DNA of 57,109 nt from a virus (IMGVR_UViG_3300047300_000237:1-57109), one strand, 5' to 3'. Shown: positions 29,245 through 41,394, numbered from the stretch's first letter. The notes: a model not told the origin generated them from the letters alone. A program made the numbers and translations.

Positions 29245-29649
29245 ATGGGCGCAATTCTGGAACATAAGCATCTAATTATCCGCGCGGAACTTAAAAATCC
29301 ACCCAAGTGCGCGGAAGCCATTCAAGATTGGATGAAGGTGCTGGTCGATAAGATCGGCATGAAGATACTTATGGGTCCATATGCGGTCTATTCTGATATG
29401 GTTGGCAATCAAGGTCTAACAGCCGTTACGATCATTGAGACAAGTCATATTGCAATGCATGTCTGGGATGAAGTTGATCCCGCTTTGATGCAACTGGATG
29501 TCTACACATGTTCTACATTGAACATTCAAGATGTCTTTGAGGCTTTGAGCGACTTTTCTCCAGTGGATGTGCAATATAAGTATATTGATCGTGAACATGA
29601 CTTGACATTGCTGGACAAAGGTGTTATAAGTGAGATACTTCCTCTTTAA
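29245..29649 (+). CDS. speD: S-adenosylmethionine decarboxylase proenzyme
   Basis: IIETSHIAMHVW cleavage motif, LDVYTCS. Confidence 0.88.
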   Translation: MGAILEHKHLIIRAELKNPPKCAEAIQDWMKVLVDKIGMKILMGPYAVYSDMVGNQGLTAVTIIETSHIAMHVWDEVDPALMQLDVYTCSTLNIQDVFEALSDFSPVDVQYKYIDREHDLTLLDKGVISEILPL

Positions 29650-30136
29650 ACACCGAGATGAAATCTGGCTTGTAAAGGATCCCAATATTGTTCCTAAGCC
29701 CAGAGAACTTTTACTTCAAAATTCTAATATCGAATTTATTAGAGAAAAAGTAAAAAGTTTAGGAAAAGGGTTGACATTTAGGGACAAAGTTAGTAGAAAG
29801 AAGATACCGAATTTGACAGCAGAGCATAAACGAAAAATTGCTCTAGCGTTAAGCGGTAGTAACAACCCCAACTGGGGTGGTTTGAAAGAAGAAACCAAAG
29901 CCAAAATTCGGCGTAAGATGCGCGGAACTAGGCGTAACGAAGATAATCCTATGTATGGTAGGCGCCAAACATGGGAAACTCGCAATCTCATAGCAATGAG
30001 AGCGAGGCAAAGAAGAAGAGCGTGGTGTGTAGAACCATCTGGTAAAACGCATTTGGTTGATCCAGTCACGTTCATTTTACCTTCTGGTTGGATGTGGGGA
30101 AGATTTTACGATCCATATAAACCAGAAGATTTTTGA
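29630..30136 (+). CDS. NUMOD3 DNA-binding repeat protein without a recognisable nuclease domain
   Basis: TAEHKRKI..GSNNPNWG, EETKAKI, NPMYGR. Confidence 0.7.
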   Translation: MRYFLFKHRDEIWLVKDPNIVPKPRELLLQNSNIEFIREKVKSLGKGLTFRDKVSRKKIPNLTAEHKRKIALALSGSNNPNWGGLKEETKAKIRRKMRGTRRNEDNPMYGRRQTWETRNLIAMRARQRRRAWCVEPSGKTHLVDPVTFILPSGWMWGRFYDPYKPEDF

Positions 30137-30155
30137 AAAAAGTTGAAAATAGTTG

Positions 30156-30186
30156 TTGACTTTTTCAGCGAATCGTTATATATACT
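30156..30186 (+). promoter_or_regulatory. Promoter of the tRNA/ncRNA operon (CGAATC-type)
   Basis: TTGACT, CGAATCG in the spacer, TATATATACT -10 region. Confidence 0.7.
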
Positions 30187-30191
30187 AGTTC

Positions 30192-30203
30192 TGCTCTTTG
30201 ACA
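30192..30203 (+). promoter_or_regulatory. rrn-like boxA antitermination site
   Basis: TGCTCTTTGACA versus consensus TGCTCTTTAACA, in the operon leader. Confidence 0.7.
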
Positions 30204-30227
30204 TTGTTGGTAGATTCTTTTCTTTGC

Positions 30228-30317
<90 letters not shown>

Positions 30318-30325
30318 AGATAAAG

Positions 30326-30482
30326 ACTTATTTGATTACTTCTACTGGGAGTAGCGCATATGGACGCATATGCTAGGGACTAGATGGGCCATCATACTAG
30401 ACCTGAAATAATCTCAGCAATGGCTTACCACGGCTGCAACCGACTGAAAAATTCGCTTATAAGTAGAAGTAATCAAATAAGT
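30326..30482 (+). ncRNA. Unidentified structured RNA enclosed by a perfect 21-bp inverted repeat
   Basis: ACTTATTTGATTACTTCTACT (30326-30346) / AGTAGAAGTAATCAAATAAGT (30462-30482); internal hairpins. Confidence 0.65.
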
Positions 30483-30493
30483 TTTTAAAGTTT

Positions 30494-30568
30494 GCCGGAT
30501 TAGCTCAGTGGTAGAGCAACCGCCTTGTAAGCGGTAGGTCGTGAGTTCGAATCCCACATCCGGCACCA
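30494..30568 (+). tRNA. tRNA-Thr(TGT)
   Basis: Loop CTTGTAA, CCA end. Confidence 0.95.
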
Positions 30569-30575
30569 TTTTCAT

Positions 30576-30650
30576 TCGGATGTGGCGCAGCGGTAGCGCA
30601 GTTGACTGTTAATCAATTGGTCGCAGGTTCGAATCCTGCCATCCGAGCCA
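30576..30650 (+). tRNA. tRNA-Asn(GTT)
   Basis: Loop CTGTTAA, CCA end. Confidence 0.95.
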
Positions 30651-30733
30651 GATAGTGTGGCAGAGTATCTTTACGGGTAATGCCGGTCCTCGTAAGTCCA
30701 TCAGACCTCGATATGTCTTCAAACTGTCGACCA
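30651..30733 (+). ncRNA. Degenerate tRNA-like RNA ending in ACCA
   Basis: GATAGT/ACTGTC acceptor-like stem, TGGCAGAGT..AATGC D-like arm, CTCGTAA loop, non-canonical T arm. Confidence 0.45.
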
Positions 30734-30738
30734 TTTAT

Positions 30739-30817
30739 CGTGGGGTAGAGGAGTCAGGTCGTCCTCGCTGGTCTCATAAGCCGGAAATCGTTGGTTCAAA
30801 TCCAACCCCCGCAACCA
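30739..30817 (+). tRNA. tRNA-Met(CAT), initiator type
   Basis: C1:A72 mismatch, loop CTCATAA, GGTTCAAATCC, ACCA end. Confidence 0.9.
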
Positions 30818-30820
30818 GTT

Positions 30821-30917
30821 TGTAACGTAGTGTAGTGGTAGCACCCGGAAGTCCGAGACACCAGCAGGTGGAGTAGGCATCCAAATGCCGTGCAGAGGTT
30901 CGATTCCTCTCGTTACA
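30821..30917 (+). ncRNA. tRNA-like RNA with the anticodon arm replaced by three mini-hairpins
   Basis: TGTAACG/CGTTACA acceptor, TAGTGTAGTGGTAGCAC D arm, AGAGG-TTCGATT-CCTCT T arm; no CCA. Confidence 0.65.
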
Positions 30918-30923
30918 TAAAGT

Positions 30924-31052
30924 TTGTATCTTTGATCTGGGACACGGTGGTCCGTGCATTTAGACTAAGATCCCTCGCATTCGAGGGTACGTGGGGGTGG
31001 ATCCCACAAGATACAACAAGCGCCGCCCGTATGCTTGTAAAATATCCCGGGC
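30924..31052 (+). ncRNA. Four-way-junction RNA followed by an H-type pseudoknot
   Basis: TTGTATCTT/AAGATACAA closing stem with three hairpins; ACAAGC/GCTTGT and GCCCG/CGGGC crossing stems. Confidence 0.5.
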
Positions 31053-31084
31053 ATAGTTTCTCGTAAATATTTTTCAAAAAAGTA

Positions 31085-31113
31085 TTTACAAACGTCACAT
31101 GTTGGTGTATAAG
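31085..31113 (+). promoter_or_regulatory. Putative promoter for the large ncRNA
   Basis: TTTACA-17 nt-TATAAG after an A/T-rich UP-like tract. Confidence 0.5.
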
Positions 31114-31124
31114 TAGAGAATAAG

Positions 31125-31967
31125 AAATGGGGGCATAGCCTCGTTAGAATAACCTTGGTAACAAGGCCAAAGCAGGGAATCCTACGCACCTGCGCCAGTG
31201 ATGGTTCATCTATGCAAGCCCAAGTTAGAGATGACTCGCCGTTGTGCGAAAGCATCTCCCGTCAATAGGATGGCGGTAGGCAGTAAGTGAGTGATATAGT
31301 CCGAAAGGATAAGAACAGAGCCAGTCGGTGAGTTCTAATAGACTGTGGTGGTCTGGCTGTATCAAACCAAACTCGCGAATGCTGAAAACTAATGGGTAAT
31401 CGCTAAGTCTGACTTCGCAAGGGAAGGCAAAGCGGTAGTATGATAGTTGAACCGATGAGGGGAGACTTGAAATACGGTTGAGTAGCCCGCAAGGCAAAAG
31501 ACATGAGGAGTGTTGTATTTTGTATCTAACAAGATACGAAGCAACTGGAGCAGCACTTCTTGGTAGGTTCGCAAATTGTCTAATGGTAAGACAACAGTTT
31601 TAGATACTGTCGATCTAGGTTCAACTCCTGGTTTGTAACAAAAAGCGAAAGACTGCTCCAGTGCTATGTGAAAGGTGCTTAATACCTAACACGGAAGTGA
31701 ATTGGGTTCACGGATTCCCGCAAGGATGAAGTGATTGATCCGAGCGAAGACGTAGCGGTTTAGCGACTGCGAATAGCCCGCAAGGCTAGCGGAAGAGCAA
31801 AGGTCGAATAGCATAGCATGATAAGTGACAAGCCACACTTCAAAAAAGGCAGCACTGAGGAATACTAGATGACCAGCGATGGCTCTAGTGGATAACGGGT
31901 TAACACTTCTCGCAAGGAAGTCGGTACGGCTCAAAGGTCCTCACTAGAAGGTGTAATCTCAACCTTC
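31125..31967 (+). ncRNA. Large ornate RNA, probably GOLLD-like (~840 nt; 5' boundary approximate)
   Basis: No credible ORF; many GAAA/GCAA-capped hairpins; long-range stems; 3' GAAGGT-GTAATCTCA-ACCTTC hairpin; located in a phage tRNA cluster as GOLLD RNAs are. Confidence 0.75.
31567..31639 (+). ncRNA. tRNA-like domain embedded in the large RNA (anticodon-position TAG, no CCA)
   Basis: GTC-TAATGGTAA-GAC D arm, ACAGT-TTTAGAT-ACTGT, CTAGG-TTCAACT-CCTGG. Confidence 0.7.
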
Positions 31968-31970
31968 ATT

Positions 31971-32049
31971 AAGACTTCTTAGATGAATGCATTATTAGTA
32001 TTGTAGAAGATAACTTCTCTATTAATAGTGCATTCTTCTAACAAGTTTT
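31971..32049 (+). repeat. Long AT-rich hairpin between the large RNA and tRNA-Ala
   Basis: GAATGCATTATTA/TAATAGTGCATTC; termini AAGACTT...AAGTTTT as in the 30326 element. Confidence 0.6.
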
Positions 32050-32125
32050 GGGGCCTTAGCTCAGATGGGAGAGCACCTGCTTTGCAAGCAGGGGGTCATC
32101 GGTTCGATCCCGATAGGCTCCACCA
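32050..32125 (+). tRNA. tRNA-Ala(TGC)
   Basis: G3:U70, loop TTTGCAA, CCA end. Confidence 0.96.
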
Positions 32126-32131
32126 AATATA

Positions 32132-32261
32132 GACCACCCCTGCTGAACCCCGCCGAAAGGCATAGAGGAAGTGGTAGTTGATTGTTGTTGCAACAGCGAT
32201 TGATTACCTGGGAAGATTGCAACGTCCGGACGTAAGCAATCAAGGCACACTGCGGGTGGTC
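32132..32261 (+). ncRNA. Unidentified multi-branched structured RNA
   Basis: GACCACCC/GGGTGGTC closing stem, GCC-GAAA-GGC, 16-bp G:U-rich hairpin. Confidence 0.6.
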
Positions 32262-32267
32262 ACTAAA

Positions 32268-32344
32268 TTGATGAAGTAGGAACGCATAGCGTATCAACAC
32301 GGCCTTCGGGTAGAGCGAAATGTTCTAGTAATTGTGAATCCTAC
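32268..32344 (+). ncRNA. Pseudoknotted RNA with HDV-like stem order
   Basis: TTGAT/ATCAA, GTAGGA/TCCTAC, ACGC/GCGT, CACGG/TTGTG. Confidence 0.45.
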
Positions 32345-32348
32345 ACAT

Positions 32349-32431
32349 GCGGGTATGGCGAAATTGGTAGACGCACTAGTTTTAGGTACTAGCGGGCAAC
32401 CGTGGGGGTTCGAGTCCCTCTACCCGCACCA
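32349..32431 (+). tRNA. tRNA-Leu(TAG)
   Basis: Loop TTTAGGT, V-arm, CCA end. Confidence 0.95.
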
Positions 32432-32437
32432 GAATAC

Positions 32438-32513
32438 GCCTCTGTAGCTCAGTTGGTAGAGCATGGGATTGAAGATCCTAGTGTCGGGGGTTCGATTCCC
32501 TCTGGAGGCACCA
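32438..32513 (+). tRNA. tRNA-Phe(GAA)
   Basis: Loop TTGAAGA (G37, unusual for bacteria), CCA end. Confidence 0.93.
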
Positions 32514-32516
32514 TGA

Positions 32517-32614
32517 ATTGGGGCTAAGCGGTGCGAATAGGGAACCCGCTGAATGTGGACTGCTGGTATAACCGTTAAATCTCACCTATGAGAAGCAAAA
32601 CACAAGACCCCAAT
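32517..32614 (+). ncRNA. Unidentified ~98-nt RNA with potential kissing loops
   Basis: ATTGGGG/CCCCAAT closing stem; loop TAGG complementary to loop CCTA. Confidence 0.55.
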
Positions 32615-32621
32615 ACTTTTT

Positions 32622-32715
32622 GGGCCCTTAGTTTAGCGGTAAAACACCCGCCTTATACGCGGCATCGTCTCCAGATTAGAGAGCGTCGGTGGTTCGAATC
32701 CACCAGGGCCTACCA
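32622..32715 (+). tRNA. tRNA-Ile(TAT) with a long extra arm
   Basis: Loop CTTATAC, ~24-nt variable region, canonical T arm, ACCA end. Confidence 0.8.
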
Positions 32716-32722
32716 AATTTAC

Positions 32723-32808
32723 GCATGGGTGGGTGAGTGGTTAATACCAGCAGACTGTAAATCTGCCGTCGAGAGGCTACGTTGGTTCGAATCCAACCCC
32801 ATGCACCA
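32723..32808 (+). tRNA. tRNA-Tyr(GTA)
   Basis: Loop CTGTAAA, V-arm, CCA end. Confidence 0.95.
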
Positions 32809-32815
32809 TAACTAC

Positions 32816-32892
32816 GGTCTGGTAGTTCAATTGGTCAGAGCACCAGCCTGTCACGCTGGAAGTTGCGGGTTCAAGTCCCGTCCAGATCGCCA
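32816..32892 (+). tRNA. tRNA-Asp(GTC)
   Basis: Loop CTGTCAC, GCCA end. Confidence 0.95.
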
Positions 32893-32898
32893 TTATTT

Positions 32899-32973
32899 GC
32901 GGATGTAACTCAGTGGTAGAGTGTCAGCCTTCCAAGCTGTTCGTCGTCGGTTCGATCCCGATCATCCGCTCCA
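32899..32973 (+). tRNA. tRNA-Gly(TCC)
   Basis: Loop CTTCCAA, TCCA end. Confidence 0.95.
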
Positions 32974-32974
32974 T

Positions 32975-33057
32975 GGGCACGTGGCGAAATTGGTAAACGC
33001 AACGGACTTAAAATTCGTCGAGAAATCTTGCGGGTTCGAGTCCCGCCGTGCCTACCA
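32975..33057 (+). tRNA. tRNA-Leu(TAA)
   Basis: Loop CTTAAAA, V-arm, CCA end. Confidence 0.95.
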
Positions 33058-33063
33058 GTTTAT

Positions 33064-33144
33064 ACCCTCGTATACCCTCTGGCTACGAACCAGTTGAAAG
33101 GTTAACTGAATGACATGCAGGTTTGAGTCCTGTCGAGGGTTCCA
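33064..33144 (+). tRNA. Atypical tRNA-Arg(ACG) lacking a D arm at the normal position
   Basis: ACCCTCG/CGAGGGT acceptor, CTGG-CTACGAA-CCAG, long insert before the T arm, TCCA end. Confidence 0.7.
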
Positions 33145-33149
33145 AGTTT

Positions 33150-33225
33150 CGGGAAGTGGCGCAAGTGGTAGCGCACCTGCTTTGGGAGCAGGGGGTTGCA
33201 GGTTCGAGTCCTGTCTTCCCGACCA
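33150..33225 (+). tRNA. tRNA-Pro(TGG)
   Basis: Loop TTTGGGA, CCA end. Confidence 0.95.
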
Positions 33226-33290
33226 GGGTAGAGTTTTCGGTAATCTCTAGCACGAAGGCGGTGCACTTAGCCAAGCGTGAAAACCGACCC
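33226..33290 (+). ncRNA. Small structured element abutting the tRNA-Pro 3' end
   Basis: GGGT/ACCC, GTTTTC/GAAAAC, TAGAG/CTCTA, GCAC/GTGC pairings. Confidence 0.4.
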
Positions 33291-33296
33291 GTTTTT

Positions 33297-33371
33297 GTTG
33301 GTGTGTTGTAACGGTAACATGCAGGTCTCCAAAACCTTGCGATCCGGGTTCGAATCCTGGCACCTTCGCCA
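33297..33371 (+). tRNA. tRNA-Trp(CCA)
   Basis: Loop CTCCAAA, GCCA end; two U:U mismatches in the acceptor stem. Confidence 0.85.
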
Positions 33372-33390
33372 TTTCAATGACAGGTGACTT

Positions 33391-33831
33391 ATGTATGATC
33401 AAGCAAGAGAAGCAATTCTAAATTCTAGTGAATCGTCATCTGTTTATATTGGTGCCGATTCTATTCGGTTCAAGCGCAAAGACGGTCATTGGTACGCCAA
33501 GTATTCTACCGTTATTATCCTTCACATGGATTCTAAGCACGGCGCCAAAATTTTCCACAAAAATATAGAAATGCGAGACTTCGGTAACTTGCGCCAGCGT
33601 CTGATCACAGAAGCAGGCTTTGCAATCGAAGCGGCGACAAGTATTCTTGATGTTTTGGGTGATAGAAAGTTAGAAATTCATCTTGACATTAACCCAAATC
33701 CCAAGTATAAGAGTAATATCGCAGTGAAAGAAGCACTGGGATATGTAAAGGGTTCTCTTGGTATTGATGCTAAGATCAAGCCAGAGTCCTTCGCTGCTAC
33801 ACATGCAGCGGACCATGTAGTGCGGAATTAG
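33391..33831 (+). CDS. RNase H-like YkuK (DUF458) family protein
   Basis: YIGADS, EIHLDIN, AADH; stop codon lies inside tRNA-Val. Confidence 0.85.
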   Translation: MYDQAREAILNSSESSSVYIGADSIRFKRKDGHWYAKYSTVIILHMDSKHGAKIFHKNIEMRDFGNLRQRLITEAGFAIEAATSILDVLGDRKLEIHLDINPNPKYKSNIAVKEALGYVKGSLGIDAKIKPESFAATHAADHVVRN

Positions 33832-33896
33832 CTCAGTGGTAGAGCGCCTCGTTTACACCGAGGATGTCGGGAGTTCGACCCTCTCATTCCGCACCA
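33822..33896 (+). tRNA. tRNA-Val(TAC)
   Basis: Loop TTTACAC, CCA end. Confidence 0.95.
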
Positions 33897-33898
33897 GT

Positions 33899-33972
33899 TG
33901 CCCCTTCGTCTAAAGGTAGGACAACAGATTTTGATTCTGTTTGTGTTGGTTCGAGTCCAGCAGGGGCATCCA
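33899..33972 (+). tRNA. tRNA-Gln(TTG)
   Basis: U1:A72, loop TTTTGAT, CCA end. Confidence 0.93.
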
Positions 33973-34021
33973 GTTTCAACGAGTTGTTGAACTCGTTTAT
34001 CCATTGAAAAGGACATATATA

Positions 34022-34258
34022 ATGAGTGATATTATTGCAGTAGATCAACTTCGCCAGTTTATTGAACGCATTGAAACTATCGAAGCCGAGATTGATGAGA
34101 AGAAGACTGATCGCAAGGAAGTCTATTCCGAACTCAAGGGTGAAGGCTTTGATGCCAAGGCAGTTCGTAAGATCGTGCGCCTCCGTAAGTTGGACGCACA
34201 TGTTCGTCAGGAAGAAGATATGATCCTTGATACATATCGTACCGCAGTAGGAGTCTAA
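34022..34258 (+). CDS. gapR: GapR (DUF2312) nucleoid-associated protein
   Basis: [11 protein letters not shown]...[25 protein letters not shown]...EEDMILDTY; AAGGA RBS. Confidence 0.92.
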
Positions 34259-34839
34259 TGGACTATAACAATCTTCTTTGGTTACCTATTGATATTCCAA
34301 AGTTTCCGTATCCCAATATGGAGCTGGCCCAAGATACGTCTTGGGCCTTTTGGAATTTCACCAAGATGGTAGAAGGCGATAGTCCGTATGAAACTACAGT
34401 CTTGAAGCAAGAGATATTGGACGCATATCCAAAACTCTTAGAATGGTTTCAGTATTTTCCATACAAGACCATTCGAAATATCAAATGGAATACTCAGGTC
34501 GGTGAAGTCCGTTCGCACATAGACTTTACTAAACCAGTAAATAATCCCGATCTTTTCAAAAACAACTCTGAAAATGAGCCATGTGGTTACAGAATTCTTA
34601 TTCGCGGTAGCAGAACAAATAAGTTGTTTGTGATGCGAGATGATGAAAAAGTTTACGTTGACATTCCAGAAGATACAGATGTATATGTTCTAAGACATAC
34701 AGATGGATTACACGGAGTGGATGCAGATGAAGACCGAACAACCATCTTTACGCATTTCGAGATTGATCCTATACGTCACAGACTTTTGATTGAAAAAAGT
34801 TTGGAAAAATACAACAATTATGCAGTTTGGGTAAAATGA
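34258..34839 (+). CDS. Putative 2OG-Fe(II)/cupin-fold protein
   Basis: HID...LHGV...R pattern. Confidence 0.5.
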   Translation: MDYNNLLWLPIDIPKFPYPNMELAQDTSWAFWNFTKMVEGDSPYETTVLKQEILDAYPKLLEWFQYFPYKTIRNIKWNTQVGEVRSHIDFTKPVNNPDLFKNNSENEPCGYRILIRGSRTNKLFVMRDDEKVYVDIPEDTDVYVLRHTDGLHGVDADEDRTTIFTHFEIDPIRHRLLIEKSLEKYNNYAVWVK

Positions 34840-34843
34840 CCTA

Positions 34844-34904
34844 TTGACTTTTGGTCGCGAATCGCTTATAAAGAGAATGTAGCGAAGTGAGAAAGTGATT
34901 CGAA
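34844..34904 (+). promoter_or_regulatory. Early promoter cassette (CGAATCG spacer + TGATTCG leader)
   Basis: TTGACTTTTGGTCGCGAATCGCTTATAAAG...GAGAAAGTGATTCGAA-ATG. Confidence 0.85.
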
Positions 34905-35291
34905 ATGCTTACCCTGTCTCAGATCAATGAAGTCACCAACAGCCATGACGGTGACATCTATTCAGACCTTTACAAGGACGTTTTCGGTTCGCGGCCTCGC
35001 GGTCATGTCTTCTCTTCAACCGAAGAGTTTGACGCCGAATTTGAGCGTCTGGTAAATCTTCTGTCGGAAAAGATTGACGAAGATTCCATTCGTCAGGCGG
35101 CTAATCTTGAGAAGTTCAAGGAGCGTGTGGCAGAAACCATGCTGCTTTGTAACTGCGACAAGGTTCGTGCTGTAGAAATCATTGCAGACGCCGAAGATGA
35201 AGCCGATGCATACAAGTGGTACGGTGCAGAGCGTCTTGAGTGGTGCTTCGACCTTAAGTTTGGCGCACTCAAAGAGTGGCTTGCTGAATAA
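34905..35291 (+). CDS. Hypothetical early protein
   Basis: YSDLYKDVFGSRPRG motif; follows the promoter cassette. Confidence 0.8.
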   Translation: MLTLSQINEVTNSHDGDIYSDLYKDVFGSRPRGHVFSSTEEFDAEFERLVNLLSEKIDEDSIRQAANLEKFKERVAETMLLCNCDKVRAVEIIADAEDEADAYKWYGAERLEWCFDLKFGALKEWLAE

Positions 35292-35297
35292 GTTTTT

Positions 35298-35372
35298 GCG
35301 CCTGTAGCTCAAAGGTAGAGCCAGCCGCTCATAACGGCCAGGTTGCGGGTTCGAGTCCTGCCGGGCGCACCA
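35298..35372 (+). tRNA. tRNA(CAT), probably Ile2 (lysidine type)
   Basis: GCCG-CTCATAA-CGGC anticodon arm typical of Ile2; CCA end. Confidence 0.88.
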
Positions 35373-35381
35373 AGTTTTTAT

Positions 35382-35457
35382 GGACCATTAGCTCAGTTGG
35401 TAGAGCGCGGGACTCTTAATCCTTAGGTCGTAGGTTCGAATCCTACATGGTCTACCA
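35382..35457 (+). tRNA. tRNA-Lys(CTT)
   Basis: Loop CTCTTAA, CCA end. Confidence 0.95.
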
Positions 35458-35463
35458 TTTCAC

Positions 35464-35539
35464 GGACACTTAGCTCAGTAGGTAGAGCAACGGGCTTTTA
35501 ACCTGTAGGTCCTGGGTTCGAACCCCAGAGTGTCCACCA
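35464..35539 (+). tRNA. tRNA-Lys(TTT)
   Basis: Loop CTTTTAA, CCA end. Confidence 0.95.
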
Positions 35540-35543
35540 ATTT

Positions 35544-35618
35544 AGTTTCGTAGCACAACGGTTAGTGCATTCGACTGATAATCGAAAGATGCAAGTTCGA
35601 TTCTTGCCGAAACTACCA
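35544..35618 (+). tRNA. tRNA-Ile(GAT)
   Basis: Loop CTGATAA, CCA end. Confidence 0.93.
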
Positions 35619-35619
35619 T

Positions 35620-35691
35620 GCCAGCAGAACAAGTGTTCGGCCGACTCTCATAAGGTTGGCTCGGTTGGAGCGTTACCAACTGCTGGTACCA
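35620..35691 (+). tRNA. Atypical tRNA-Met(CAT) with minimal D arm and non-TTC T loop
   Basis: GCCAGCA/TGCTGGT acceptor, GAAC-AAGT-GTTC, CCGACT-CTCATAA-GGTTGG, GTTGG-AGCGTTA-CCAAC, ACCA end. Confidence 0.75.
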
Positions 35692-35692
35692 A

Positions 35693-35770
35693 GGGTCGAT
35701 GGCAGAGTGGTCCAATGCAAGGGACTGCAAATCCCTAAAGCCGCCAGTTCGAATCTGGCTCGGCCCTCCA
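35693..35770 (+). tRNA. tRNA-Cys(GCA)
   Basis: Loop CTGCAAA, TCCA end. Confidence 0.93.
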
Positions 35771-35774
35771 ATAT

Positions 35775-35849
35775 GCGGGAGTAGCTCAGGGGTAGAGCGT
35801 CACCTTGCCAAGGTGAATGTCGTGGGTTCGAATCCCATCTTCCGCTCCA
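35775..35849 (+). tRNA. tRNA-Gly(GCC)
   Basis: Loop TTGCCAA, TCCA end. Confidence 0.95.
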
Positions 35850-35851
35850 TT

Positions 35852-35927
35852 GGCCCCATCGTCTAGCGGCCTAGGACGCGGCCCTTTCACGGCTGAAACA
35901 CGGGTTCGATTCCCGTTGGGGTCACCA
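35852..35927 (+). tRNA. tRNA-Glu(TTC)
   Basis: Loop CTTTCAC, CCA end. Confidence 0.95.
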
Positions 35928-35942
35928 GTTAAGGATTATATC

Positions 35943-36119
35943 ATGAGTAAGATGATTATAGCATTTCTAATTCTGTTTTGCCTTATATTTGCTGGAATTG
36001 AAGTTTTTCAGACCCTGACCAAATCTGAAAAAATTAACTTGACAAAGTGGGTCATTTATAGTATAGTGTGTGCAGTGATGACAATGGTTGTCATTGCTGG
36101 TATTGTGTTCATCTTTTAA
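35943..36119 (+). CDS. Small two-TM membrane protein
   Basis: AAGGA RBS; typical partner upstream of phage SPFH genes. Confidence 0.75.
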   Translation: MSKMIIAFLILFCLIFAGIEVFQTLTKSEKINLTKWVIYSIVCAVMTMVVIAGIVFIF

Positions 36120-36132
36120 GGATTAATTTGTA

Positions 36133-36930
36133 ATGAATCGTATTGCTAAGATTTCGGCTCTGGGTCTTCTGATGGTTACCACGGCTGCTTGTACCCGAAT
36201 TGAGACTGGTGAAGTCGGTGTTCGTCGCTCGTTTGATAAGACGATTGAAACTACAGAACTTCTGCCTGGTAGTGTGAACCAGACCATCTTCGGTGATGTT
36301 ATGACTTTCCCGACTAAGGATGTGTCGGTAGATGTTGCTGATATGACGCCACTAGCATCTGACAACTCTACAGTTGCAGACTTTGATCTTTCGGTTGTCT
36401 ATTCGATCAATCCCACTTCGGTGGCAGAACTTTACATCGAAAAGAACCGTGGCTTTCATGCTGAAACCGAAGATGGCGATACGCTGTTGATGTATAACTA
36501 CATTCGCCAGTTGGCTCGTAATGCTGTCTACAAGACCGCTCGTAAGTATGAATCGCTCAAGATGGCAGATAATCGTGCTGAAATCGAAAATCTTGTTCGT
36601 CAGGAGATTGTAGAAAATCTTGCAGATGAAAAGTTGGATAGCGCAATCACTGTCTCACAGGTTCTGGTTCGCCAGATTACCCCCGCCGAGAACATTGTCC
36701 AGTCGGCTAACCTGCTTGTTCAGGCACAGAATGAACAGAAGCGCAAGGAAGTCGAAGTGAAGACTGCCAAGTTGGAAGCAGAACGAATTGCCGCTCTTAA
36801 TGCCAACAAGGGTGCTACCCAGTATATGGCTGCAATGGCGCTTCAGGATATCGCAACTGGTGTCAAGAACGGCAAGGTGAATACTGTTGTTGTTCCTTAT
36901 GACTTCAAGGGTATCATCAACGTCAAGTAA
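36133..36930 (+). CDS. SPFH/Band 7 (prohibitin-like) lipoprotein
   Basis: Lipobox TAAC, IETGEVGV, C-terminal EAERIA coiled coil. Confidence 0.9.
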   Translation: MNRIAKISALGLLMVTTAACTRIETGEVGVRRSFDKTIETTELLPGSVNQTIFGDVMTFPTKDVSVDVADMTPLASDNSTVADFDLSVVYSINPTSVAELYIEKNRGFHAETEDGDTLLMYNYIRQLARNAVYKTARKYESLKMADNRAEIENLVRQEIVENLADEKLDSAITVSQVLVRQITPAENIVQSANLLVQAQNEQKRKEVEVKTAKLEAERIAALNANKGATQYMAAMALQDIATGVKNGKVNTVVVPYDFKGIINVK

Positions 36931-36938
36931 GACTGACT

Positions 36939-37025
36939 GGAAGGTGGGCAGGACGGTAATGCAACGCACTGCTAATGCGTCAACCAGAAATGGTTGAGTG
37001 GGTTCGACTCCCACACCTTCCGCCA
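36939..37025 (+). tRNA. tRNA-Ser(GCT)
   Basis: Loop CTGCTAA, long V-arm, GCCA end. Confidence 0.95.
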
Positions 37026-37044
37026 GTTATAAGTAATCCTGTAT

Positions 37045-37121
37045 GGTGTCGGTAGCTCAGTTGGTAGAGCGCGGGCTTGTGGTGCCTGATGTCGCGGGTT
37101 CGAACCCCGTCCTTCACCCCA
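37045..37121 (+). tRNA. tRNA-His(GTG) with G-1 and C73
   Basis: Loop TTGTGGT, CCCA end; two acceptor-stem mismatches. Confidence 0.9.
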
Positions 37122-37131
37122 GGAGAACAAC

Positions 37132-37884
37132 ATGGACATATTGATCGGAATCTTAACATCTAAAGATCAACAAAAACTAAAACGTTGTGTAGAGAGTGTT
37201 CTGCCGCAAACCACCAATGTGGTAGTGGTATGTAATACTCTCGATTTGTCGTATGTGAAGGAGGCACAAAAGATTGCCGATGATCATGGACTAAAATTCA
37301 TAGTCACGGAATCCAATGGCACTCCTGCAAAAGGCAAAAATTCTGTTCTGGAATATTTCAGAACTACTAATCATCAATACTTCATGCAAGTTGATGGTGA
37401 TGATGAACTTACTCCAGATTGTCTTGAAAAACTGAAAAGAATCGTTACTGACAACCCAACTGTTGATGTTATAGGTCTGACTTATAACTACATGCTATAC
37501 GACAATTCTGTGACCACCGCAGAAGATTTCTTTGAGAGCAAAGACATTTACTCTTTTGCTGGTATAAAAGGCGCACACGGATTGCGACTTATCCAATTGG
37601 GTAAATTTCTAGCAAACAATCTTGTCTATAATAGAATGTTATTATACTCAAGAAAATGTTTAGATCATTTGATATTTGATGAAAAGTTCTTGGGATCAGA
37701 AGATGTTGTGGCTTCATATAAATTATTCTATAATAAACAAATAGAATACGTTCTAACAAATGAACATCTGTATGTGTATCACTTGGAAGATGGAGGAAAC
37801 TTCAACTCGTTTTTAAGTAGTTCCTCAGAAATCAAAAAGGTTCTCGGTGAGTTGGAGAGAATAGTAAATGACCCACAAGATTGA
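37132..37884 (+). CDS. Glycosyltransferase family 2
   Basis: LKRCVESVL, SNGTPAKGKN, VDGDD, GSED. Confidence 0.85.
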   Translation: MDILIGILTSKDQQKLKRCVESVLPQTTNVVVVCNTLDLSYVKEAQKIADDHGLKFIVTESNGTPAKGKNSVLEYFRTTNHQYFMQVDGDDELTPDCLEKLKRIVTDNPTVDVIGLTYNYMLYDNSVTTAEDFFESKDIYSFAGIKGAHGLRLIQLGKFLANNLVYNRMLLYSRKCLDHLIFDEKFLGSEDVVASYKLFYNKQIEYVLTNEHLYVYHLEDGGNFNSFLSSSSEIKKVLGELERIVNDPQD

Positions 37885-39795: not shown

Positions 39796-41394
39796 ATGAC
39801 TATGCGCGGAATGATTTTTGGTGGTATGATCAACTCGGACGAGCCAGCTCGTCCAGCTGATCTTCCTGGTGTCAGCTACAGTTCTGTGCGCCGTCATGCC
39901 GGGTCACATAGAATTGCTTCCTTTCTACGCCAGAATGGAGTGGAGGTAGAAGTAATCGATTTTGCACCTTCGTGGAAGTTCGAAGAGTTCCAAGAACTTG
40001 TTCGATCCAGAAAAATGTCAGAGATGAAATTTGTCGGTCTAGGTGCAATTTTCAATATGAACACCGAGACATTGTGGCGGTGCTTTACTTGGCTAAAACA
40101 AACTTATCCCGATGTCTTGCTTATCACTGGGTCTACTGAATTTCACAACATTCAACATATTCCTGCGGACTACATGGTGGTGGGGTATGGTGAATACGCC
40201 ATTCTAGAAATTCTAAAAGGTACCGCAAAGTGGACAGAACAGGTAATCAACAAAGAAGGTAATACTCGCAAGACGGTTCATGCACTACGGGACTATCCTG
40301 CATATCCTATGAGAAATCTATCCATTGACTTTGAAGATAGAGACTTTATGCAGCCGTTCGAAGCGGTTACTATGGAAACATCGCGCGGATGTAGGTTCAA
40401 ATGTTCATTCTGCACATATTCTATTCTGGGTGTAAAAGAAGACCATACAAGATCCGCCGATGATTTTCGTGATAATTTGATGCGTAACTATGACAAATAC
40501 GGTCTTCATAGATATTCCATCGCGGATGAGACCTTCAATGACTACACCGATAAGATCATCAAGTATGCCGATGTGGTAGAAAAACTACCCTTCAAGCCAA
40601 ACTTTGGTGGTTATGTCCGAGCGGACTTGCTCCATAGCAGGCCAGATGATATCGAACATTTGGCTAGAATGCGCTTCAATGGACAATTCTATGGCATTGA
40701 ATCATTCAATCATGCTAGTGCCAAGGCCATCGGTAAGGGACTGGATCCAGAAAAAATTCAGGCTGCTATTCTTAAAACCAGAGACTATTTTCTCAAACAT
40801 AATGGATATTACAAAGGCACGATTAGTCTTATCGTAGGTCTTCCACATGAAACCTCAGAGACTTTAGACGAGACTTTGAAGTGGTGTAAGGAAAATTGGA
40901 AGACACAACATCTTGGATGGACGCCACTGTTTATCACAAGCACACATAATAATGTAGTGCAAAGCACACTCTCTACAGAATACTCCAAGAAGGGCTATAG
41001 TCTAGTCGATCTTGATGAGATTATGTTAGATGAAACTCACCCAGATGTTAAGAGTATTCTGGATAGTAACCATGTTGTGCCAGAGATGAAGCACTATGTT
41101 AGAATGTTCCTGCGTAACTTTACCAATACTGTTCTTTTCCAGCACTGGAAGAGTAACACTGGTATGACAGAACGTGATGCCATTCTATGGATCATCAACA
41201 ATGTATGGAAGAAAGATGAATACATGGACTTCGGCGTTGATCATTGGAGAATGGACGAATGGTATGTTCATGGAAAGACAGATCAAGATATGCTAGGTTC
41301 ATATCGTGACTTAGGTGGCATACGACCGCCGATTGATGTCAAAGTAGATTTTATCGAAGAATATAAGAAAAAGAAACTAAACTATGTTGACTGA
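39796..41394 (+). CDS. B12-binding-type radical SAM protein
   Basis: SRGCRFKCSFC, IADETFN, YGIESFN, IVGLPHET; N-terminal Rossmann-like domain. Confidence 0.88.
   Translation: MTMRGMIFGGMINSDEPARPADLPGVSYSSVRRHAGSHRIASFLRQNGVEVEVIDFAPSWKFEEFQELVRSRKMSEMKFVGLGAIFNMNTETLWRCFTWLKQTYPDVLLITGSTEFHNIQHIPADYMVVGYGEYAILEILKGTAKWTEQVINKEGNTRKTVHALRDYPAYPMRNLSIDFEDRDFMQPFEAVTMETSRGCRFKCSFCTYSILGVKEDHTRSADDFRDNLMRNYDKYGLHRYSIADETFNDYTDKIIKYADVVEKLPFKPNFGGYVRADLLHSRPDDIEHLARMRFNGQFYGIESFNHASAKAIGKGLDPEKIQAAILKTRDYFLKHNGYYKGTISLIVGLPHETSETLDETLKWCKENWKTQHLGWTPLFITSTHNNVVQSTLSTEYSKKGYSLVDLDEIMLDETHPDVKSILDSNHVVPEMKHYVRMFLRNFTNTVLFQHWKSNTGMTERDAILWIINNVWKKDEYMDFGVDHWRMDEWYVHGKTDQDMLGSYRDLGGIRPPIDVKVDFIEEYKKKKLNYVD

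Follow-up and report, generated by a model that had tools for sequence, protein, structure and literature searches.

The stretch studied here is the entire uncultured contig IMGVR_UViG_3300047300_000237 of the IMG/VR collection (57,109 nucleotides (nt), hereafter the window; estimated to be 35% complete), and the element in question is a giant structured RNA of the GOLLD family, which lies in an island of transfer RNA (tRNA) genes and carries a tRNA look-alike inside its own linker. Of the 27 tRNAs that ARAGORN finds in the window, 26 lie on the + strand between 30228 and 37121, the look-alike among them, and the free ones include the anticodons UAG and CUU. In this study, we have compared this RNA with its relatives in viral contigs, metagenomes and cultured phages. 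Our analysis indicates that window 31120-31967 (+ strand) is almost certainly a full-length GOLLD, and that it is ordinary for the family except for the wholesale-swapped anticodon loop of its tRNA look-alike.

Extent and structure of the GOLLD RNA

Scanning the whole window with cmscan against Rfam 15 returned 29 matches at or above the gathering score, one to GOLLD (RF02032) and 28 to tRNA, and no other family reached that score (the presence of a ROOL model in the library was not confirmed). The GOLLD match covers 31505-31965 on the + strand and positions 1-416 of the 416 in the model, with 195.3 bits (E 1.3e-53) against a gathering score of 150 bits. A search of the window's own genome repeated this result, and the same model had zero matches over 14 control genomes. 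An earlier note on this DNA had named the family by resemblance and proposed a search with the GOLLD model; the full-model match bears it out, and the total length, the position in a tRNA island and the structure of the 5' half agree with it. Admitting matches with E up to 0.1 over 29500-37500 added nothing but sub-threshold plastid-motif matches antisense to tRNAs.

The Rfam model describes only the conserved 3' half of GOLLD, and the 5' domain lies outside it. The extent of the RNA was traced by homology, using a pattern for the 3' end (GTGGATAA, 30-60 nt, then GTAATCTCA) that retrieved at least 118 stretches from viral contigs, and a blastn comparison of window 31050-31504 with the 1,150 nt upstream of each GOLLD 3' end. 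Distant homologues (L146, L167, L138, L165, L192, L183 and L164) start to align at 31120-31128, and close relatives align already from the promoter region on. Of the extent first proposed, 31125-31967, the 3' end is kept and the start moves to about 31120. This gives an RNA of about 848 nt, consisting of a variable 5' domain (31120-31504, about 385 nt, 21 helices), a first hairpin (31505-31561), a tRNA-bearing linker (31562-31652) and a conserved 3' domain (31653-31967) that ends in a hairpin with an invariant GUAAUCUCA loop. The structured and contiguous 5' domain, the total length, the tRNA-bearing linker and the location in a phage tRNA island are all those of a GOLLD.

For the secondary structure, window 31120-31967 was aligned with 14 homologues whose 5' part matches at blastn E < 1e-20 (alignment A1, 15 sequences), leaving aside L113, with blastn scores identical to those of L146, and the weaker or partial L130, L107, L178, L002, L004 and L106. 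RNAalifold predicts 206 pairs on this alignment, 140 with compensatory change; the final set, which combines these with the outer stem of Rfam (as a pseudoknot) and the tRNA cloverleaf, holds 227 pairs in 45 helices. Over the 15 sequences 96.8% of the cells are paired, compared with 34.7-40.6% in a control in which the 3' partners were slid by 1-3 columns (226-227 pairs). Similarly, 151 pairs change on both sides against 28-42 when slid, the covariation score is 0.567 against 0.064-0.081, and none of 500 shuffles equalled the observed pairing or covariation values. We accept the structure because of this covariation, folding of the single sequence being weak by comparison (z = -2.09 over 20 shuffles, one of them equally good).

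In the 5' domain, helices 1-21 span 31129-31504 (A1 columns 10-446) and 17 of the 21 contain at least one compensatory pair. An invariant GAAA-capped hairpin lies at 31299-31310, and GAAA loops stand at 31248-31251 and 31303-31306. Together with CGCAAGG, of which five of the 12 copies in the 57-kb window (both strands; whole-window shuffle mean 4.8) fall within the 848 nt, these are the repeated CGCAA-type and GAAA-capped hairpins described earlier. Among the helices of the 3' domain (22-45 minus 25-30 of the tRNA-like module), 17 of 18 contain pairs in which both partners have changed, with 91-100% pairing per helix. The first hairpin of the Rfam model (model 1-59) is made of an outer stem and an inner hairpin with a conserved internal strand (helices 22/23, with 3/7 compensatory pairs). 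Three long-range helices had been picked out from the window alone, and all of them covary: helix 24 (ACTGGAGCAG/CTGCTCCAGT; nine pairs, three compensatory, 97.8% paired), helix 31 (TGCTATG/CATAGCA; nine pairs, six compensatory) and helix 40 (TGAGGA/TCCTCA; six pairs, four compensatory). The terminal loop, GTAATCTCA at 31953-31961, is likewise as described, and unchanged in 15 of 15 sequences. There are two differences from Rfam. Helix 24, whose 5' strand (about 31544-31554) pairs with about 31651-31662, encloses the linker as a stalk and crosses helix 22 as a pseudoknot; in the Rfam consensus this 5' strand is unpaired. Near 31825-31842, the subgroup of the window has helix 39 (five of five pairs compensatory) in place of a different stem drawn in the Rfam alignment.

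The linker is bordered by conserved strands, a near-invariant GGTAGGTT at 31562-31569 and an A-rich AAAAAGCGAAAGA at 31640-31652 (A1 columns 610-621). Within the first, GUAGG (31563-31567) is complementary to the loop CCUAC of a 5'-domain hairpin (31181-31185); the pairing is possible in all 15 sequences, and L176 shows one event of double change, from A-U to G-C. Judged on this complementarity, CCUAC/GUAGG is a candidate for a tertiary contact that joins the cap domain to the linker of its own chain or of another. The linker also seems to be the place of recombination break-points. Between L086 and L103, identity falls from 98.5% over the 5' domain to 86% over the 3' domain and 76% over the module, their linker tRNAs being different, and L138 and L183 have backbones 93% identical, with the module present in L183 and deleted in L138.

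The same covariation bears on the possibility that the region is an antisense protein gene whose RNA structure is incidental. The longest open reading frame (ORF) on the + strand has 41 amino acids (aa), so that the description of the region as ORF-free stands for this strand; on the antisense strand there are stop-free stretches of 84-124 aa, without a coding signature. One antisense frame over the 3' domain (31686-31934, - strand) is open in 11 of 15 homologues and has a stop in the window. We rejected it as a protein since it has no codon periodicity, the column entropies at codon positions 1, 2 and 3 being 0.606, 0.624 and 0.518, with the third position the least variable. Antisense stops are depleted because the sense strand is purine-rich (58%), and the 151 compensatory pairs speak for selection on RNA pairing. 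A protein gene here is thus barely conceivable. Gene callers are nevertheless likely to label this frame as a hypothetical protein.

Upstream of the RNA, a sigma-70-like promoter was recognised by eye on the + strand (31085-31113), with TTTACA (31085-31090) and TATAAG (31108-31113) set 17 nt apart; a start near 31120, about 7 nt past TATAAG, is predicted. The scan tool had missed it, as it accepts only second hexamers that end in T. The hexamers are retained over a diverged spacer in L100 (TTTACA/TATAAG) and in L086 and L103 (TTTACT/TATAGT), and most other homologues have sites of the TTGACA-17-TATAAT type 10-60 nt upstream. The RNA would therefore have a putative promoter of its own, as had been claimed, with a function that is inferred from sequence. 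Downstream, a long hairpin (31971-32049, + strand; minimum free energy -31.9 kcal/mol) separates GOLLD from a tRNA-Ala. The motifs of its arms, TTAGATGA...TTCTTCTAA, are found again downstream of GOLLD in L086, L103, L109, L183, L176 and L164 around a variable inner sequence, and in L086 the hairpin is followed by a run of seven T. It is a possible terminator or processing site.

Pieces of 31000-32100 are present in twenty public runs, of which eight are recorded as RNA. Coverage was compared, on contigs throughout, in four runs, namely three RNA libraries from three studies and a probable DNA run (X1). In the three RNA libraries, contigs with depths of about 60 to 1,100 match parts of 31204-31931, each piece showing 0-10 differences, which is compatible with an abundant transcript. 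None of the three libraries covers 31944-32007 and little is covered at 32136-32327, where X1 continues. Their last pieces end at differing sites (31891 and 31931), and we draw no 3' end from them.

A tRNA-like module in the linker

Within the linker lies an element that was absent from the earlier note, a tRNA-like module of 71 nt at 31569-31639 on the + strand, with the anticodon loop UUUAGAU (anticodon UAG) and without CCA. It scores 51.1 bits with RF00005 against a cut-off of 29, and ARAGORN calls it tRNA-Leu(tag) of 71 nt. A tRNA-shaped insert in the linker of GOLLD is a layout that is already published. PMC6582537 describes GOLLD with a pseudo-tRNA in linker J13/15 in mycobacterial tRNA arrays, and a linker tRNA-Phe in a Mycolicibacterium GOLLD is cited in PMC12990946. 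The module of the window resembles these in the place of the insert, in the tRNA genes on both sides and in its doubtful tRNA function; unlike them, it belongs to a module family with one conserved Lys-type body and at least six loops.

The first reading to be weighed is that the linker element is a real tRNA gene, with GOLLD as its carrier or store, from which RNase P and 3' processing would free the tRNA on opening of the cage; an idea of "inhibited storage" is stated in PMC12990946 and bioRxiv 10.1101/2024.12.08.627333. The RF00005 score agrees with this reading, and so do the D, anticodon and T stems, which are 89-94% paired and covary. The ends of the module do not. CCA is encoded after 26 of the 28 Rfam tRNA matches in the window, including all 26 free tRNAs, and the two exceptions are the match at 30821-30918 and the module, which is followed by AAAAAG. 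In addition, the acceptor helix is 82.5% paired and does not form a seven-pair stem, as C2 stands opposite A71 and G3 opposite U70, and pair 2-71 is unpaired in 10 of the 11 homologues with letters there. Among the 19 linker tRNAs that ARAGORN finds in 124 sampled GOLLD 3' ends (103 of them with at least 1,150 nt upstream), a CCA end is seen only in L164, whose module ends in ACCA, and perhaps in L161. The phage moreover already has free tRNAs with UAG and CUU, and for a mycobacterial GOLLD, PMC6582537 reports that no separate pseudo-tRNA was seen by Northern blot.

The body of the module is also at odds with its anticodon. Bacterial tRNA-Leu and tRNA-Ser are class II tRNAs, and the free tRNA-Leu genes of the phage are 83 nt long. 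The module combines a Leu anticodon with a short class I body of Lys type, with a variable region of 4 nt in place of the long arm that Leu calls for, and the same body occurs with CUU in nine distinct relatives. By tRNA identity rules, such a body cannot suit the leucyl- or seryl-tRNA synthetases, and its changing anticodons break the anticodon-based recognition by lysyl-tRNA synthetase. The best identity between the module and the free tRNAs of the window is 66%.

A second reading takes the module for a decaying passenger, a tRNA gene without a role in a tolerant linker, whose loop varies since it is unconstrained. Consistent with this, ARAGORN finds no tRNA in the linker of 105 of the 124 sampled 3' ends; three members of A1 (L146, L138 and L186) have a degenerate module or have lost it; the pair L138/L183 differs in its presence; and the linker is unresolved in the GOLLD cryo-electron microscopy (cryo-EM) map, according to bioRxiv 10.1101/2024.12.08.627333. 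Against this reading, the body is better conserved than the GOLLD backbone wherever a module is present. The module is 94-95% identical to those of L100 and L109, where the GOLLD backbones are just 86% and 77% identical to the window, and its stems covary. Replaced linkers are seen as well. In a contig of the probable DNA run with near-identical flanks, 31571-31639 is replaced by 79 other letters, and a contig of an RNA library has two differences in the 134 nt upstream and then a tRNA of the L103 type. This fits cassette exchange in natural populations.

Anticodon-loop switching on a conserved body

The comparison of the window with L100 reveals where the module changes: the bodies differ at 3 of 65 positions and the loops, TTTAGAT in the window and CTCTTAA in L100, at 5 of 7 (Fisher p = 7.8e-5). 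A search for the body that left the loop free (AACAGT, seven free bases, ACTGTCGATCTAGGTTCAA) found 10 viral and 11 metagenome loci, which with the window make 22 rows and, some contigs being in both collections, 16 distinct sequences. Six anticodon loops occur among these 16. CTCTTAA is the most frequent (14 rows, nine distinct contexts, with L100, L109 and L220 among them), followed by TTTAGAT (two rows in two contexts, the window and L224), TTATGGA (two rows, one context, L222 = L231), TCTGAAT (two rows, one context, L227 and L228), ATTGAAG (one row, one context, L218) and TTTGTAT (one row, one context, L233). Each variant loop differs from CTCTTAA at 4-6 of the 7 positions, and no intermediates were seen in the sample.

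The body and the loop follow different rules. CTCTTAA is identical among carriers with 67-95% backbone identity. L100 and L227 (backbone 88%) have bodies identical at 64 of 64 positions and share one of seven loop positions. The window and L224 share TTTAGAT at a backbone identity of 72%, are not nearest relatives, and each has nearest neighbours that carry CTCTTAA. Even in L233, a divergent GOLLD (164 bits, backbone aligned at 42% identity), the body equals that of the window at 63 of 64 positions. Real tRNAs for Lys, Leu, Thr, His and Ser in these phages have loops similar to those of the modules. In the literature on GOLLD in phages that we searched, supplementary alignments lying outside that search, no description of loop switching on a conserved body was found.

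Two local explanations for the loops were tried and rejected. A kissing partner was sought within the same GOLLD, and no complement of at least 6 nt tracks the loop. The AUCUAA of the first hairpin is complementary to UUAGAU of the window, yet modules with other loops occur beside the very same AUCUAA. As for gene conversion from the phage's own tRNAs, the free tRNA-Ser(UGA) of the window and of L218 shares its anticodon stem with the module, but its loop, CTTGAAA, differs from ATTGAAG and TCTGAAT of the UGA-type modules.

These loops complete the evidence on both readings set out above. For a real tRNA, it is favourable that U33 is present in five of six loops and a purine at position 37 in six of six; it is unfavourable that one short class I body is found with Lys-, Leu-, Ser-, Thr- and His-type anticodons. 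Together with the missing CCA and the mismatched acceptor end, this makes a releasable tRNA an unlikely reading. For a passenger, neutral drift would not give a CUCUUAA that is identical across backbones 67% identical, and we hold this explanation to be more improbable still. A loop that is held constant or replaced wholesale points instead to a partner that reads anticodon loops, as far as sequence comparison can tell. Based on these results, the module is likely a mimic that stays tethered, rather than a tRNA that is released and can be charged.

Several observations weigh against this interpretation and the picture of the RNA that goes with it. A covarying cloverleaf with a canonical anticodon loop is what a working tRNA would show as well, and in bacteria CCA can be added post-transcriptionally. 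The loop sample is small (16 distinct sequences), and the search pattern itself fixes 25 of the 64 body positions. With a linker tRNA in 19 of 124 sampled 3' ends, the module cannot explain GOLLD in general. Finally, contigs neither prove transcription nor show the ends of an RNA, and one RNA-library contig (X4, 30646-31470) runs straight through the promoter recognised by eye, in keeping either with transcription that reads through from the tRNAs upstream or with a library that contains DNA.

Cages, carriers and the meaning of the module

The structures of two GOLLDs are listed in PMC12990946, env-38 (833 nt, a 14-mer, PDB 9MEE) and that of Streptococcus agalactiae (700 nt, a 12-mer, 9L0R), and both are known to form RNA-only cages (bioRxiv 10.1101/2024.12.08.627333 and PMC12990946). 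The RNA of the window is like the family in its full 3'-domain match, its structured 5' domain of about 385 nt, its total length, its variable linker, its phage tRNA island, its invariant GUAAUCUCA end loop and its several C-GCAA-G loops; it differs in that its carrier is an uncultured T4-like phage. By analogy with these relatives, the RNA probably forms a cage, a step of which we are less sure than of the mimicry. ROOL, another large ornate phage RNA near tRNA genes, likewise forms RNA-only cages (bioRxiv 10.1101/2024.12.08.627333). A Lactobacillus prophage GOLLD is reported to accumulate in lytic growth and to be dispensable (PMC7567579, citing Weinberg 2009).

A possible course of events can be proposed from the sequence and from the solved relatives. 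Transcription would start about 7 nt downstream of the sigma-70-like promoter, and the RNA would end at or before the long conserved hairpin. The internal strand of the first hairpin pairs across the linker to form a stalk, and about 12-14 copies would assemble without protein into a dihedral cage, in which the 5' domains would cap the cage, the 3' domains would form rings, and the linkers with their tRNA-like modules would face the interior. There, the module would stay in the RNA without decoding and offer an authentic-looking anticodon loop for some partner to read. Taken as a whole, the explanation of a GOLLD member that forms a cage and holds a tethered mimic is in our view probable. A further step, that the module is an anticodon-loop bait whose conserved, non-chargeable body travels between diverged GOLLD backbones, is a tentative and rather doubtful idea. 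If it were true, 12-14 copies facing the lumen would make a multivalent decoy or trap, for example for the host anticodon nucleases used against phages, and the swap from Lys to Leu(UAG) in the window would be one step of an arms race.

The carrier is a T4-like phage, as first supposed, since the window encodes a T4-type DNA polymerase, UvsX, a DnaB-like helicase and ribonucleotide reductase. Its host is less evident. The best cultured matches of the polymerase are Synechococcus phages (50% aa), those of UvsX are Stenotrophomonas and Xanthomonas phages (59-63%), and the order polymerase-UvsX-helicase is as in DLP_6. Polymerase and UvsX indicate different groups of phages, and for a third protein, of 532 aa (39796-41394), cultured phages offer no match. 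The alphaproteobacterial host suggested earlier does not follow from these genes, and only the nearest cultured GOLLDs are in alphaproteobacterial phages. Being an uncultured contig estimated to be 35% complete, the window is not itself the tractable model that it had been taken for. By blastn, the RNA has relatives in 20 records of cultured phages, 18 of them from the Caulobacter phiCbK group, the others being roseophage DSS3_MAL1 and Sinorhizobium phage Phosso. The four loci that were fetched, DSS3_MAL1 (L001 2525-2988), CcrKarma (L002 2545-3031), Phosso (L003 2528-2996) and phiCbK (L004 2529-3015), all exceed the Rfam cut-off for GOLLD (160.5-186.6 bits) and contain a tRNA match, and their records annotate the inner tRNA alone or nothing, GOLLD not being listed. 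A permuted tmRNA adjoins GOLLD in DSS3_MAL1 and the Caulobacter phages. In the literature on Caulobacter phages and phiCbK noncoding RNA that we consulted, the latter by title and abstract, no link to GOLLD was found. Among the four cultured T4-like phages closest by UvsX, GOLLD is present in one, Xanthomonas phage BUDD (L209 1501-1928, 428 nt, 181.9 bits, no tRNA match inside), and DLP_6, Mendera and C48C1 are without it.

The slot of GOLLD in the island is variable among uncultured relatives, of which the polymerase identifies 587; one of five large contigs has GOLLD. In G006 (92% polymerase identity), the segment matching 30637-32038, which in the window holds a tRNA-Met, an odd tRNA-like match and GOLLD, is replaced by a manA RNA (RF01745, 65.1 bits, L216 2293-2465) and an ORF of 511 aa. 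In G003, which is 92% complete, the slot is empty and the flanking tRNA regions are about 70 nt apart. GOLLD is therefore an accessory module of the tRNA island, as the slot holds manA or nothing in relatives, and the slot is a hot spot at which structured RNAs replace one another. Like GOLLD, manA is a structured phage RNA of tRNA-rich regions; unlike it, manA has about 190 nt and an unrelated structure, and is classed as cis-regulatory in Rfam.

Other elements of the island were noted in passing. The odd tRNA-like match (30821-30918) is 98 nt long and scores 40.1 bits with the tRNA model; it is uncalled by ARAGORN, has no CCA and about 25 extra nt mid-way, and shows a perfect acceptor stem of 7 base pairs (TGTAACG/CGTTACA). 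An insertion or intron in a tRNA could explain these features, and so could a further tRNA-like RNA. Between this match and the GOLLD promoter, a compact multi-hairpin element closed by GTATCTT...AAGATAC was seen by eye at 30926-31014; it has no Rfam match at E up to 0.1 and lies inside contig X4. Further downstream, the 220-nt spacer between tRNA-Ala and tRNA-Leu (32126-32348) contains GC-rich hairpins, such as GCCGAAAGGC, and has neither an ORF above 79 aa nor an Rfam match.

In conclusion, few RNAs of bacteria and phages that lack a known function are as large as GOLLD, which forms protein-free cages, and our results place GOLLD as an exchangeable accessory of the T4-like tRNA island. The copy of the window adds little alone; it is the comparison it prompted that gives leads. 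GOLLDs sit in cultured, genetically workable phages, unannotated and with a linker module in the phiCbK group, DSS3_MAL1 and Phosso, and with no tRNA match inside in BUDD. Importantly, the switch-like loop turns the question of what the cage does into a testable one, namely what binds the loop.

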